A stretch of 64,000 nucleotides of DNA from Patescibacteria group bacterium (GCA_038064895.1 JBBTSA010000010.1:31725-95724); one strand, 5' to 3'. Numbered from the stretch's first letter, positions 17,556 through 26,548 are shown. Numbers and translations: made by a program. The notes: generated by a model from the sequence alone, not told the origin.

Positions 17556-17591
17556 ACACACCCCAGGGGTGTGATAGGCTGACACCGTAGG
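17556..17591. repeat. Dispersed structured palindromic repeat, copy 1 (intergenic)
   Basis: CACACCCC-A-GGGGTGTG-ATAG-gct-GACACCGTAG, the same core as at 25212, 42536 and 55440. Confidence 0.7.
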
Positions 17592-17599
17592 ATTTGGTG

Positions 17600-17671
17600 A
17601 GCCAACGGTGAGAGTTGAACTCACGACCTTTCCCTTACGAAGGGACTGCTCTACCACTGAGCTACGTTGGC
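17600..17671 (-). tRNA. tRNA-Thr (anticodon CGT)
   Basis: GCCAACG-TA-GCTC-AGTGGTA-GAGC-A-GTCCC-TTCGTAA-GGGAA-AGGTC-GTGAG-TTCAACT-CTCAC-CGTTGGC-T. 72 nt, CCA not encoded. Confidence 0.8.
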
Positions 17672-17683
17672 ATTACTTTTCCT

Positions 17684-17777
17684 GGGTTGCTTTATTTATT
17701 TTGTGGTAATTCTTTAAGGTAAGCAACCCGTTTAAATGTCATTTAGACATTTAAACCCACTAAGCTACACCGGCCCG
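17684..17777 (-). other. Two tandem hairpins (9-bp stem with a 28-nt loop; 10-bp stem with a 5-nt loop) followed by a 22-nt tRNA 5'-end-like fragment
   Basis: Inverted repeats GGGTTGCTT/AAGCAACCC and TTTAAATGTC/GACATTTAAA. Minus-strand GGGCCGGTGTAGCTTAGTGGG resembles a tRNA acceptor plus D arm, but no complete cloverleaf could be folded. Confidence 0.35.
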
Positions 17778-17813
17778 TACATATTTTCCCATATTTTATG
17801 TTAAAATTCCTAT

Positions 17814-18146
17814 ATGAATTTAACAAAAAAACATTGTGTGCCTTGTGAAGGAGGGATCGATCCCTATACTAAGAGAGAAGCTGAAGAATATTTAAAGGCT
17901 GTAGAGGGATGGTATCTTGTGGATGAACAACCAATGAAACTACAAAGAAAATTTACATTTAAGGATTTCAAAGAAGCTATGGTTTTTGTAAATAAAGTTG
18001 CGGATTTGGCAAATTCGGAAGATCACCATCCAAATATAAATATTCACAGCTACAAAAAAGTTGATATAACTTTATATACTCATGCCATTGAAGGCCTTTC
18101 AGAAAATGACTATATAATAGCAGCTAAAATAAACCAACTAATGTGA
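17814..18146 (+). CDS. phhB: Pterin-4a-carbinolamine dehydratase (PCD/DCoH)
   Basis: SEDHHPNINIHSYKKVDITLYTHAIEGLSENDY matches the PCD signature [E]-x3-HHP-x5-[YW]-...-H-x3-GL[ST]. The product is 110 aa. Confidence 0.8.
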   Translation: MNLTKKHCVPCEGGIDPYTKREAEEYLKAVEGWYLVDEQPMKLQRKFTFKDFKEAMVFVNKVADLANSEDHHPNINIHSYKKVDITLYTHAIEGLSENDYIIAAKINQLM

Positions 18147-18249
18147 GCAGATATATCATATCGCTCGAACTTATTTTAGCAAAAACTTTTAATCGACGCA
18201 TTTTATTCTCGGCGGGTAGACAATCCCTGAAAACTCTTAACACCCAGAT

Positions 18250-18278
18250 TTGAAACTATAGGACTTTTATGGTAAAAT
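18250..18278 (+). promoter_or_regulatory. Putative promoter for the four-gene operon. The -10 element ends 7 nt before the ATG, so the transcript may be leaderless.
   Basis: TTGAAA (18250-18255), then 17 nt, then TAAAAT (18273-18278). Start codon at 18286. Confidence 0.35.
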
Positions 18279-24580: not shown

Positions 24581-24582
24581 AA

Positions 24583-25128
24583 ATGGCAGAATTTGAAACA
24601 AGAACAGCTGAGTTTTTCAAACAAAATTATGATGATCTAGCAGCACAGCTCCAAAATAGAGTTGTGGAGTTAGCTGATTCAGGTTTGAGGATTATTTTAA
24701 CTTTATTACAACCTTGGTCTAGAACAGAAACAGGAGGAGGAATTGCTCAAGTAAGACCTTGGTACAAAGCTATGAGGAATATGGAGCCAGGAGATTGGTG
24801 TGCAACAGCTATACCTTTAAGAAGCATGAGACAGTCACTTGTTGTAGCTTTGGATACTCGTGAGGTAGGTGCATGTATAAGGATTGTGCGGGCAAGCAGA
24901 TTTGACCCTCAAAAAAATGATTTTGTGGCAATGCCAAGGGAAGGTGATATAGCAAACTTTTTAGGGATGAGAGATAATGAAAGAGCTCAAATTAGATTCC
25001 TAAATGAATCAGATGTATTGTATCTTGTACGTACCGGCCTAACTATAGAGCCGGTTGTGAATACACCCAGCCCCCAGAACACCACAGACGCAAACCGTCA
25101 ACTCGAAAGGCTTTTACAAAGCCAATAA
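24583..25128 (+). CDS. 181-aa hypothetical protein ending in the same [D/E]ANxQLxRLL tail as proteins A and B
   Basis: Start lies 2 nt after the fusion-protein stop. C-terminus TTDANRQLERLLQSQ. No recognisable domain by eye. Confidence 0.65.
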   Translation: MAEFETRTAEFFKQNYDDLAAQLQNRVVELADSGLRIILTLLQPWSRTETGGGIAQVRPWYKAMRNMEPGDWCATAIPLRSMRQSLVVALDTREVGACIRIVRASRFDPQKNDFVAMPREGDIANFLGMRDNERAQIRFLNESDVLYLVRTGLTIEPVVNTPSPQNTTDANRQLERLLQSQ

Positions 25129-25211
25129 TTAATAAATCTATTAATCTTCATTCTCCAATTATTGAACAACAAAAGAGGTAGGAAACGAGATTGAGGTTGA
25201 CGCCTATGAGC

Positions 25212-25265
25212 GGGTGTGTATTACACACTTACACACACCAGGTGTGTGGTAGGTAGACACCCCGG
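25212..25265. repeat. Dispersed structured palindromic repeat, copy 2 (intergenic variant with three stacked palindromes)
   Basis: GGTGTGTA-TT-ACACAC, then CACACACC-A-GGTGTGTG, then GTAGGTAGACACC, then CCCCG-GACT-CGGGG. Confidence 0.6.
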
Positions 25266-25336
25266 ACTCGGGGAAGTTTTTGACTTGTACAAAGTATTGA
25301 CTTTCGGGTATTTTATGGTTTAAAGTAAAGGTTACC

Positions 25337-26323
25337 ATGAAAAATGATAGTCAAATTATTATTTATCAAACAAGTGATGGTAAGACGCAAGTAGAAGTAC
25401 GCTTTGCGAATGAAAATGTGTGGTTGGCACAAAAGTTGATCGCTCAACTTTTTGAATGTAGCATCGATAATATTTCCCTACATCTCAAGAACATTTTTGC
25501 CGAAGGAGAACTTGATCCGAAATCAGTTATCGAGGAATACTCGATAACTGCAAAGGATGGAAAACAATACAAAACCAAGCACTACAATCTGGAAGCTATT
25601 ATTGCTGTTGGATACCGTGTAAATTCGGCTCTTGGTACAAGATTCCGCCAATGGGCAACTGAGCGCCTTAAGGAATATATAATTAAGGGGTTCACTATGG
25701 ATGATATTCGCCTCAAACAAGGTGGGCACAGAACCAGGTACTTCGAAGAACTGCTACAGCGCATAAGGGATATTCGAAGTAGTGAGCGGATGCTTTATCA
25801 AAAAGTTACGGATCTCTATGCAACCTCTATCGATTATCGTAAAGATGCGGAAGAAACCGAAACTTTTTTTAAGACCGTGCAGAATAAAATGCATTTTGCG
25901 GTTACGGGCAAAACTGCTGCAGAGATTATAGCCGAACGCACAAGTCACACAAAACATAATTTAGGACTTACAAACTTTCCGGGGAGATATCCTATTAAAA
26001 GGGATATTTATATAGCGAAAAATTATCTTGACGAAAAAGAACTGAAACTTTTAAACCGTATTGTTGATGCCTACCTTTCTTTTGCAGAAATTCAAGCTCA
26101 AAGTGAAAAAGCAATGAAAATGATTGATTGGGTTCGTAAACTTGATGAATACTTAACTCTAATGGGCAAGGACGTTCTTAAAGGCTCAGGAAGTGTAAGC
26201 GCAGCGGACGCTGAGATAAAGGTTGAGGTAGAATTTACTTCTTATAAAAGAGCCGCGGACAAAAAATTTATTTCAGATTTTGACAGGCTAACAAAGAATT
26301 TGTTAAAGAAAACAAGAAAATGA
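25337..26323 (+). CDS. rhuM: RhuM-family protein (virulence-associated / Fic-DOC-related family)
   Basis: The N-terminus IIIYQTSDGKTQVEVRFANENVWLAQKLIAQLFECSIDNISLHLKNIFAEGELDPKSVIEEYSITAKDGKQYKTKHYNLEAIIAVGYRVNS matches the conserved RhuM N-terminal region closely. Confidence 0.8.
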   Translation: MKNDSQIIIYQTSDGKTQVEVRFANENVWLAQKLIAQLFECSIDNISLHLKNIFAEGELDPKSVIEEYSITAKDGKQYKTKHYNLEAIIAVGYRVNSALGTRFRQWATERLKEYIIKGFTMDDIRLKQGGHRTRYFEELLQRIRDIRSSERMLYQKVTDLYATSIDYRKDAEETETFFKTVQNKMHFAVTGKTAAEIIAERTSHTKHNLGLTNFPGRYPIKRDIYIAKNYLDEKELKLLNRIVDAYLSFAEIQAQSEKAMKMIDWVRKLDEYLTLMGKDVLKGSGSVSAADAEIKVEVEFTSYKRAADKKFISDFDRLTKNLLKKTRK

Positions 26324-26476
26324 CAAAATATTACAACCCAAACCCTCCTTCGCGTGAAGCTACAAAAGGGCAAGGCAGGAAGAAAAATTTGTATGATAAA
26401 AACTCAAAAGAGGTTTTTCGTTTGAGCCGGGGTAAGATTGATGATTTCATTGCTTGTCCGCCAACTTGGGACTGGG

Positions 26477-26548
26477 AGCGGCGGACCGGATTTGAACCGG
26501 CGACCTTCTCCTTGGGAAGGAGACATTCTACCGCTGAACTACCGCCGC
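26477..26548 (-). tRNA. tRNA-Gly (anticodon CCC)
   Basis: GCGGCGG-TA-GTTC-AGCGGTA-GAAT-G-TCTCC-TTCCCAA-GGAGA-AGGTC-GCCGG-TTCAAAT-CCGGT-CCGCCGC-T. 72 nt. Confidence 0.85.

Follow-up and report, generated by a model that had tools for sequence, protein, structure and literature searches.

The genomes of bacteria of the Candidate Phyla Radiation (CPR, or Patescibacteria) are tiny, and the routes by which these organisms gain and swap accessory genes are poorly understood. We analyzed a 64,000-nucleotide (nt) stretch (GCA_038064895.1, JBBTSA010000010.1:31725-95724; hereafter, the window) of a 158-kb groundwater metagenome contig recovered from the 0.1-μm filter fraction of Hainich well H51. The genomes nearest to it are metagenome-assembled genomes of Candidatus Daviesbacteria, which belong to the CPR. 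We found that 8.8 kb of the window (17672-26474) is strain-specific accessory DNA in a hotspot between tRNA-Thr(CGU) and tRNA-Gly(CCC). The best overall explanation, to which we assign a probability of about 0.8, is that this accessory DNA is a mosaic of three modules imported from CPR donors and that one of the modules, a four-gene cassette referred to here as A-D, is a restriction-modification (R-M)-like device of defense or counter-defense. Between these tRNA genes are six genes, all on the plus strand. The sequence-only reading had proposed this arrangement (PCD, a four-gene operon, and RhuM), and it was borne out by ARAGORN, Rfam, Pfam, and the positions of the open reading frames (ORFs):

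17599-17671 (ARAGORN) or 17600-17671 (Rfam), minus strand: tRNA-Thr(CGU), a backbone gene and the left border; the insert abuts its 5′ end.
17814-18146, plus strand: PCD (pterin-4a-carbinolamine dehydratase, DCoH), module 1; PF01329, E = 3e-29.
18286-19605, plus strand: gene A, 439 amino acids (aa); six four-helix units of ~63 aa, a disordered linker, and the C-terminal helix SDEANIQLERLLEVQI.
19602-20708, plus strand: gene B, 368 aa; a paralog of A; five repeat units, tail SEEANQQLRRLLEG.
20729-24580, plus strand: gene C, 1283 aa; N-domain, predicted Swi2/Snf2 and S-adenosylmethionine (SAM) methyltransferase domains, and C-terminal region.
24583-25128, plus strand: gene D, 181 aa; residues ~9-103 homologous to the AAG/MPG fold, with the tail TDANRQLERLLQSQ.
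25337-26323, plus strand: RhuM-family protein, 328 aa, module 3; PF13310, E = 2e-102.
26475-26548 (ARAGORN) or 26477-26548 (Rfam), minus strand: tRNA-Gly(CCC), a backbone gene and the right border; the insert abuts its 3′ end.

To characterize the locus in related genomes, we anchored a synteny search on the upstream tetratricopeptide repeat (TPR)/glycosyltransferase gene. From 185,579 species genomes, the search returned 39 loci (labeled with L numbers below), about 25 of which were from Daviesbacteria with 60-70% identity in the anchor protein, and we mapped these loci using tblastn and ARAGORN. The conserved backbone runs polX - tRNA-Asp - LysM - (nth) - TPR - tRNA-Thr(cgt) - tRNA-Gly(ccc) - GlucB - Wzy - GT4 - MT - flippase - tRNA-Val - S26 - ParB. 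In eight relatives (L010, L011, L012, L017, L019, L024, L027, and L035), the site is empty, with 0-133 nt from tRNA-Thr to tRNA-Gly. In four others, unrelated cargo sits between the tRNAs: a RecD-like helicase and a zinc-finger protein (2.7 kb; L014), PMT_2 glycosyltransferases (1.6-1.8 kb; L018 and L030), or other unrelated genes (4.2 kb; L022). Neither PCD nor A-D was found within 10 kb of the site in any relative among the 39 anchored loci. The gap between the TPR gene and tRNA-Thr is likewise variable. It holds a 535-aa large serine recombinase (Resolvase, Recombinase, and Zn_ribbon_recom domains) in L017 and a DDE transposase fragment in L041. The universal conservation of gene order that would have refuted acquisition is thus decisively absent, and the interval is a hotspot with variable contents. 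With eight empty sites and four occupied by other cargo, synteny supports the earlier proposal of horizontally acquired DNA at a tRNA locus. Downstream of the TPR gene in L023 (12641-13481), we also observed a RhuM homolog (~50% identity) that is split into two ORFs and is likely a pseudogene; RhuM recurs at the same hotspot in another member of the Daviesbacteria.

The left junction of the insert retains further traces. Hairpin and tRNA-fragment debris, which had been reported at 17684-17777 from the sequence alone, is real and resolves into two hairpins and a single tRNA fragment:

17684-17729, unstranded: hairpin with a 9-bp stem and a 28-nt loop.
17730-17756, unstranded: hairpin with a perfect 11-bp stem and a 5-nt loop.
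17757-17774, minus strand: 18-nt tRNA-Thr 5′ fragment, corresponding to positions 1-18 of a foreign tRNA-Thr allele.

The two-hairpin region (17684-17756) has a minimum free energy of -29.2 kcal/mol (z = -2.4) and matched nothing in Rfam, where only the four tRNAs of the window were recognized. The tRNA-Thr fragment occurs once, 86 nt from the tRNA-Thr gene, and on the minus strand it reads GCCGGTGTAGCTTAGTGG, an exact match to positions 1-18 of tRNA-Thr in L035 and L017. Its acceptor strand is GCCGGTG, as in those two relatives, whereas the resident tRNA-Thr has GCCAACG with a compensating 3′ strand. GCCAACG is also found in the tRNA-Thr of L025, a relative with tRNA sequences that barely differ from those of the window. 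Because the alleles differ, the fragment is not a duplicate of the resident gene but a piece of another lineage's tRNA-Thr. We regard it as a junction scar and as direct evidence of imported DNA beside tRNA-Thr. Two relatives carry alterations at the corresponding position. L024 (8306-8450) has a 13-nt duplicate of the tRNA-Thr 5′ end (AAGCTACATCGGC) located 52 nt from the gene, and in L025 (11700-11840), a tRNA-Thr without its 5′ ~14 nt is fused directly to the 3′ end of tRNA-Gly, which is either an assembly artifact or a scar left by a deletion at this hotspot.

Several observations weigh against a classical island. As had been stated for the window, we found no integrase or recombinase among annotated genes, and this held from ~7 kb of adjacent contig to the left of the window start through ~56 kb. 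Att-like direct repeats were not detected either, since local alignment of the junctions scored 18 compared to a shuffle mean of 15.6, with 18% of shuffles scoring as high or higher. An 8-mer shared by the junctions (AAGCTACA) was rejected as an att site because it occurs six times in the window and is a chance match. The suggested check for deviating GC content and codon usage came back negative: GC was 0.374 in the island and 0.367 ± 0.030 elsewhere, GC at third codon positions (GC3) was 0.261 and 0.287 ± 0.039, respectively, and GC, GC3, and the codon chi-square were all within one standard deviation of 42 other genes. Furthermore, with anchor-protein identities of just 60-70% to the nearest relatives, the insertion cannot be dated, and parsimony alone does not separate gain from ancient presence followed by repeated loss. 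With no deviation, composition is usable as evidence neither for nor against acquisition, and the lack of a signal is expected if the donors were other CPR bacteria. Missing repeats are compatible with serine recombinases or with homologous exchange across conserved tRNAs. The missing integrase is partly explained by the serine recombinase at the hotspot in L017 and by the closest operon homolog, which is carried on a conjugative element with a serine recombinase. Under the favored reading, donors of similar base composition within the CPR would have supplied the DNA. Either it was integrated by a serine recombinase or conjugative element whose mobility genes were then lost, or it was swapped in by homologous exchange between the conserved flanking tRNAs, and acquisition would have left the 18-nt foreign-allele fragment at the left junction.

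The interval is not one element but a mosaic of three modules (PCD, A-D, and RhuM), each with a distribution of its own and apparently with its own transcription. We arrived at this view from the independent distribution of the modules together with their own promoter- and terminator-like signals:

18250-18278, plus strand: promoter-like site (TTGAAA-17-TGnTAAAAT), 8 nt before A; consensus match only.
25260-25273 plus tail (element region 25212-25283), plus strand: terminator-like GC hairpin and T-run after D, overlapping a copy of a dispersed palindrome.
25297-25326, plus strand: RhuM promoter-like site; consensus match only.

The site before A is the best promoter-like site of the region, with 10/12 matches and an extended -10, and the terminator-like hairpin, itself a consensus match only, may mark the end of an A-D transcription unit. 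Within that unit, A and B overlap by 4 nt, and gaps of 20 nt and 2 nt separate B from C and C from D. At 11 other loci with homologs of the operon, D followed C in every case (11/11), and neither PCD nor RhuM was ever found beside them. Both flanking genes match their Pfam families above the gathering score. PCD scored 101 bits against PF01329 (gathering cutoff, 26), with the NCBIfam equivalog cutoffs missed (113.8 versus 137), and RhuM scored 342 bits against PF13310 (cutoff, 33.7) over residues 63-307 and matched PADLOC PDC-S05 with an E value of 5e-133. We also considered a plus-strand ORF of 80 aa (26320-26562) as a truncated PD-(D/E)XK gene. It runs from the RhuM stop codon across tRNA-Gly, received no support from Pfam or tblastn, and is without a homolog in any fetched locus; it is probably spurious.

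Two other histories could account for the interval. The whole of it might be a decayed single integrative (conjugative) element that arrived in one serine-recombinase event beside the tRNAs and later lost its mobility genes. We think this unlikely. The closest homolog of C (67% identity) sits with A- and D-like genes in a CPR conjugative element whose serine recombinase lies beside tRNA-Gly(gcc)/tRNA-Phe, a large serine recombinase is present at the same hotspot in L017, and the foreign tRNA-Thr fragment marks the left junction; serine recombinases, moreover, leave no long direct repeats, which fits the absence of junction repeats. Yet the interval contains no type IV secretion system (T4SS), relaxase, or coupling-protein gene and no remnant of a recombinase. 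PCD and RhuM are never linked to the cassette at the 11 other loci, the modules have promoter- and terminator-like signals of their own, a dispersed repeat separates D from RhuM, and RhuM stands alone at the hotspot in L023. Alternatively, the segment could be ancestral, so that nothing was acquired and the empty sites of relatives represent repeated deletions between the tRNAs. The fusion in L025, read as a deletion that took the 5′ end of tRNA-Thr and joined it to tRNA-Gly, would be an example of such loss, and both the ordinary composition of the segment and the fairly large distance to all relatives (60-70% identity) agree with an ancestral origin. We nevertheless judge it very improbable in light of eight independent empty sites with intact, tightly spaced tRNAs, four sites with unrelated cargo, the occurrence of the cassette in unrelated contexts that include a conjugative element, the rarity of the D family, and a tRNA-Thr fragment whose allele differs from that of the resident gene.

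The main cargo of the interval is the A-D cassette. The predicted product of C begins with a helical N-domain that has no family match (residues 1-~290), followed by a Swi2/Snf2 ATPase (~295-870; GDTGATKT and DESD), a class I SAM methyltransferase (~930-1135; GAGTC), and a C-terminal region. Across 30 members of the family, Pfam reported SNF2-rel_dom in 18/30, DEAD in 16/30, and Methyltransf_11 in 28/30. An AlphaFold2 model of residues 1-1200 had a predicted local distance difference test (pLDDT) score of 83, and its top Foldseek matches were all Swi2/Snf2 remodelers (SMARCAD1, Chd1, ISWI, Rad54, and Mot1; E = 7.5e-15 to 1e-11). Domain content and modeled fold therefore agree in identifying C as a predicted Swi2/Snf2 double-stranded-DNA translocase fused to a SAM methyltransferase.

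Gene D appears to encode a divergent methylpurine-DNA-glycosylase-like base-binding domain. Using a profile of 59 sequences, we searched the entire PDB, and human AAG accounted for four of the six top matches (E ~1). Pur_DNA_glyco was the most recurrent Pfam family among D members (best member, E = 0.069), with D not reaching the gathering score of PF02245. When the D profile was aligned to human AAG with hhalign, the probability was 92-94% (score, 46), compared to ≤0.9% for 19 negative controls that included reversed AAG, eight shuffled AAG sequences, and eight unrelated proteins. The first 100 residues of the AAG sequence used were confirmed by the PDB-search output, and it was the 100-residue version that scored best. 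In this alignment, D residues 9-103 correspond to AAG residues ~84-179, a stretch that takes in the EFFxQ...LAxxLLG signature at the N terminus as well as the PG loop and the GACV strand. An aromatic residue occupies the position of Tyr127 in every family member (W/Y/F in 59/59). D differs from human AAG/MPG in being shorter (core, ~150 aa), in having a C-terminal docking-type tail, and in the replacement of the catalytic Glu by Gln. The E125Q form of AAG is a substrate-trapping mutant (PDB 1EWN). Given this property and the Gln at the catalytic position, D may bind a base rather than excise it.

A and B are built from tandem helix-turn-helix-like repeats. The repeat motif of A is KPNGYWT..E..EA..F...G.L....L.......L..AI...YPGG...L...LGI, and the model of the protein (pLDDT, 89) shows six four-helix units, after which a flexible linker leads to a C-terminal helix. 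In their bodies, A and B share only ~39% identity, and neither is related to D. Most operons contain one to four repeat proteins; none was called beside the 2071-aa C of L059. What these otherwise dissimilar proteins have in common is their C terminus. In 8/9 operons, the repeat proteins encoded upstream (one to four per operon) end, as does D, in a common amphipathic peptide of ~12 residues whose sequence varies from operon to operon; in the ninth operon (L051), the tail was seen only on the single upstream protein. The window has EANxQLERLL, compared to E(A/D)xxDLD(R/K)FF in L050, AxxALxxYF in L054, and EANxQIEALLKD in L008, and in L053 the tail EANEDLDRLLEG is present on all five proteins. 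The best 11-mer identity between tails was 0.79 within and 0.45 between operons (Mann-Whitney P = 6e-12, for pairs that are not independent). By eye, ~70/87 representatives of the D family have such a tail. We infer that the tail could serve as a common docking peptide for a partner from the same operon, for which C is the obvious candidate. It is unlikely that the tails are beta-clamp-binding motifs (QLxLF/QLxLxL), considering their helical spacing (i, i+3, i+4), the predicted helix, and covariation with the operon rather than host constancy. We also looked for a Rosetta-stone fusion of the repeats to C, but the N-terminal extension of the 2071-aa homolog (P0038) is not A-like.

The cassette is mobile and, taken overall, rare, with most occurrences in CPR-type genomes. 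Among 5.8 billion proteins, C has 45 relatives, nearly all of them 1260-1320 aa in length. None has a functional annotation, the source names being only "methyltransferase domain-containing protein" (Candidatus Daviesbacteria; P0011) and "hypothetical protein." For the D family, 87 clusters were found in a set of 1.84 billion representatives. The A-like proteins came from contigs that also encode C homologs, apart from four weak, lowest-ranked outliers (P0098-P0101), of which two are GIY-YIG proteins. Relatives of C were not found in IMG/VR (2.9 M viral contigs), INPHARED (50,697 phage records), or PLSDB (72,556 plasmid records). The closest relative (67% identity) is in L005 (GCA_964489875.1, CAZAZW010000002.1, 1-20300), a CPR-type genome, inside an apparent integrative conjugative element. 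There, the cassette has T4SS pilin/TrbC/VirB4/TraC-like genes on one side and, on the other, a Replic_Relax relaxase, a TraG-like coupling protein, and a large serine recombinase directly adjoining tRNA-Gly(gcc)/tRNA-Phe. This context accounts for 1 of ~12 cassette loci. Elsewhere, the cassette is found between a MazE/Fic pair with a methyltransferase and rpoB (L006), after AbiEii and before rpsP (L058), after HicA (L059), or in core chromosomal neighborhoods (L008, L053, and L057). It is because the contexts of the homologs all differ that we consider the cassette mobile. As a separate observation, the two metagenomic GIY-YIG endonucleases among the outliers (P0100 and P0101) carry long arrays of the repeat KPNGYWTKE..EA.KY....F......Y..A...GWLD..C.HM. 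Its first half is common to the A/B repeat, which suggests a shared DNA-binding repeat module of homing endonucleases.

From its parts, A-D would be a conflict system based on DNA modification. Through their shared tails, A, B, and D would all dock at one site of C, with the repeat proteins delivering the motor to DNA and the motor tracking along the double strand. A base modification could then be written by the methyltransferase, read by the AAG-like D, or both, with the result that DNA is discriminated or damaged. In its full form, with a translocase-borne noncanonical methyltransferase, an AAG-like reader or excisor, and interchangeable repeat-array recognition proteins on an operon-specific docking peptide, this proposal is speculative and less likely than not. 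In a bolder variant, the methyltransferase might act on the shared tails themselves, since its nearest PDB relatives include a peptide carboxyl-methyltransferase.

The functional proposal has evidence against it as well. The methyltransferase of C lacks the (D/N/S)PP(Y/F/W) and PCQ motifs of DNA methyltransferases, so we rejected its assignment as a DNA amino- or C5-methyltransferase. The (D/N/S)PP(Y/F/W) motif is absent from the methyltransferase domain in all 45 homologs, and the one regular-expression match (P0030, residue 50) is outside the domain. By sequence, the nearest PDB relatives of the domain are spermidine synthase, the peptide carboxyl-methyltransferase LahSB, and ToxA. In D, the equivalent of Glu125 is E in only 16/59 members (27%), Q in 15/59, and K in 10/59, with Gln in the protein from the window. 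We found no nuclease in A-D. Searches of PADLOC-DB v2, which covers R-M, BREX, DISARM, MADS, and other systems, returned no match for A, B, or D, and the sole match of C was a partial one to mad2, the DNA methyltransferase of MADS, restricted to the methyltransferase domain (E = 2e-11).

These features leave room for other functions. A-D could be a counter-defense or establishment module of a mobile element, like DarB, that modifies incoming DNA against restriction and was stranded in the chromosome. The closest relative does have T4SS genes on one side and a relaxase on the other, inside a conjugative element, dyads of Swi2/Snf2 and methylase recur as anti-restriction devices of phages and conjugative elements (PMC5512222), and phrog_62, a large phage "DNA helicase" family, matches C (E = 8e-21). 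Most of the loci that we examined are chromosomal, however, without mobile-element genes nearby; the viral-contig, phage, and plasmid collections contain no relatives; the methyltransferase is not of the adenine-N6 type; and the domain order is reversed relative to DarB. This makes a dedicated counter-defense role quite unlikely in our estimation. More generally, chromosomal contexts beside toxin-antitoxin and RhuM genes favor defense, while carriage on a conjugative element favors counter-defense. A housekeeping-type accessory of chromatin or DNA repair, such as surveillance of alkylation damage coupled to a translocase, would accommodate the relationship of D to the alkylpurine repair glycosylase AAG, the participation of Swi2/Snf2 ATPases in repair and transcription, and an operon without a nuclease or toxin. 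It is at odds with the extremely patchy distribution and varying genomic position of the cassette, its carriage on a conjugative element, and its frequent proximity to toxin-antitoxin or RhuM genes. Also typical of arms-race genes are the rapidly varying count of repeat proteins (one to four) and the operon-specific tails. We consider a housekeeping role improbable and retain the reading of A-D as an R-M-like conflict device.

The sequence-only reading had also described copies of a dispersed palindromic repeat flanking the island at 17556 and 25212. The copies are real, but they do not flank the island, as the second is inside the tRNA-bracketed interval:

17552-17586, unstranded: palindromic element copy between the TPR stop codon and the 3′ end of tRNA-Thr, outside the insert.
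25212-25261 (aligned part, 25227-25261), plus strand: palindromic element copy between D and RhuM, overlapping the terminator-like hairpin.

These two copies (17552-17586 and 25227-25261) are 86% identical over 35 nt. The element occurs at four loci in the window (17552, 25212, 42548, and 55452), with seven matches on both strands compared to a shuffle mean of 0.02. Its core was absent from the loci of all 39 relatives. At the position equivalent to 17552-17586, relatives have unrelated hairpins. The remaining two copies of this nested palindrome of ~47 nt are in frame within coding sequences. One (42548-42565) is in a murG-like ORF (41991-43088, minus strand; Glyco_transf_28), where the inserted peptide reads ..KLAHPRGVLRSHRK.., and the other (55452-55469) is in the recO ORF (55270-55935, minus strand; RecO_N/RecO_C), where it reads ..LSHPWGVIGSHLR... 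Rickettsia palindromic elements are likewise inserted into coding sequences. We rejected the palindromes as ends of the island given their positions: one beyond the left tRNA, another within the interval, and the other two in frame in the murG-like gene and recO.

Other parts of the window differ from its relatives as well. Two more tRNA genes belong to the backbone around the hotspot:

14050-14124, minus strand: tRNA-Asp (ARAGORN and Rfam).
31599-31671, minus strand: tRNA-Val (ARAGORN and Rfam).

In most relatives, polX and tRNA-Asp are contiguous. In the window, they are split by inserted genes (11563-14034) for a 247-aa protein, an SQS_PSY-like protein, and a DUF5615 (PIN-like)/DUF433 toxin-antitoxin pair, and the orientation of tRNA-Asp flips among relatives, making this interval a second variable spot at a tRNA. 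On its other side (14050-14456), tRNA-Asp is followed by a small GIY-YIG ORF (14115-14378) and then by a partial tRNA-Asp-like copy of ~70 nt (14383-14456) that retains the 5′ two-thirds but has another anticodon arm. The arrangement resembles the interruption of a tRNA gene by a homing-endonuclease-type insertion, the displaced 5′ part having been kept. The endonuclease III gene (nth; 15295-15933), located between LysM and TPR, was present only in the window genome, L017, and L035, with ~20 other relatives lacking it at this position. Finally, a 1725-aa ORF (4353-9530, minus strand) without a Pfam match on record lies beside a LemA/M48 peptidase pair.

As an island, the interval is ordinary, save that it is one of few documented hotspots in the CPR. 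The tRNA pair can be followed across more than 20 Daviesbacteria genomes with empty sites, alternative cargo, a serine recombinase in one relative, and a link to a CPR conjugative element. The cassette, in comparison, is uncatalogued and unusual in architecture. It is a candidate for a new conflict system in which a remodeler-type motor, a methyltransferase, and a glycosylase-like base reader are combined, without a match in defense catalogs. If the proposal is true, the cassette would represent a "socket and plug" form of modular diversification of target specificity. To our knowledge, an architecture of shared, covarying C-terminal peptides has not been described for R-M-like systems.

The insert resembles the tRNA-associated genomic and defense islands of cultivated bacteria in its strain-variable cargo, with empty sites and different cargo per strain, in the presence of a recombinase at the site in some genomes, and in conflict-type cargo (RhuM and the helicase-methyltransferase cassette). 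It differs in lacking an integrase, att repeats, and a compositional signature, in having a reduced-genome CPR host, and in its location between tandem tRNAs (5′ end of tRNA-Thr and 3′ end of tRNA-Gly), where the scar is a 5′-end fragment of a foreign allele instead of a 3′-end duplication. RhuM proteins are known beside R-M-type operons (PMC3710099), and the one in the window, a full-length member, fits that description: its neighbor within a variable island is a helicase/methyltransferase operon. It is, however, outside the A-D operon, has its own promoter-like site, and is absent beside the cassette at all other loci, such that the association is not conserved.

With type I and type III R-M, BREX, DISARM, and MADS, the cassette shares the grouping in one operon of a superfamily 2 (SF2) motor with a methyltransferase and accessory proteins for DNA recognition, along with the weak mad2 match, but it is without a nuclease, PglZ, HsdS, or PLD, and its methyltransferase is not of the N6-adenine type. 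The DarB dyad of phage P1 and the polyvalent proteins of conjugative elements (Iyer et al. 2017, PMC5512222) similarly joins a Swi2/Snf2 ATPase and a SAM methyltransferase in one polypeptide, and the likeness extends to the carriage of at least one cassette on a conjugative element and to presumed action on DNA in genetic conflict. In C, the order is helicase and then methyltransferase, the latter being Methyltransf_11-like and without motif IV of DNA amino-methyltransferases, and A-D adds dedicated tail-bearing partners (repeat arrays and the AAG-like protein) and has no relatives in phage or plasmid databases. Restriction and antiviral glycosylases, namely the R.PabI type (PMC10273834), Brig1 (PMC11078745), and Dag1/2 (bioRxiv 10.1101/2025.10.29.685425), offer a further parallel. 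D has the AAG/MPG fold and not the HALFPIPE or UDG fold, its catalytic Glu is not conserved, and its partners are a Swi2/Snf2 motor and repeat proteins. Like them, however, A-D places a glycosylase-fold protein beside a methyltransferase in a mobile and patchily distributed locus, which by analogy suggests modification-based discrimination of DNA.

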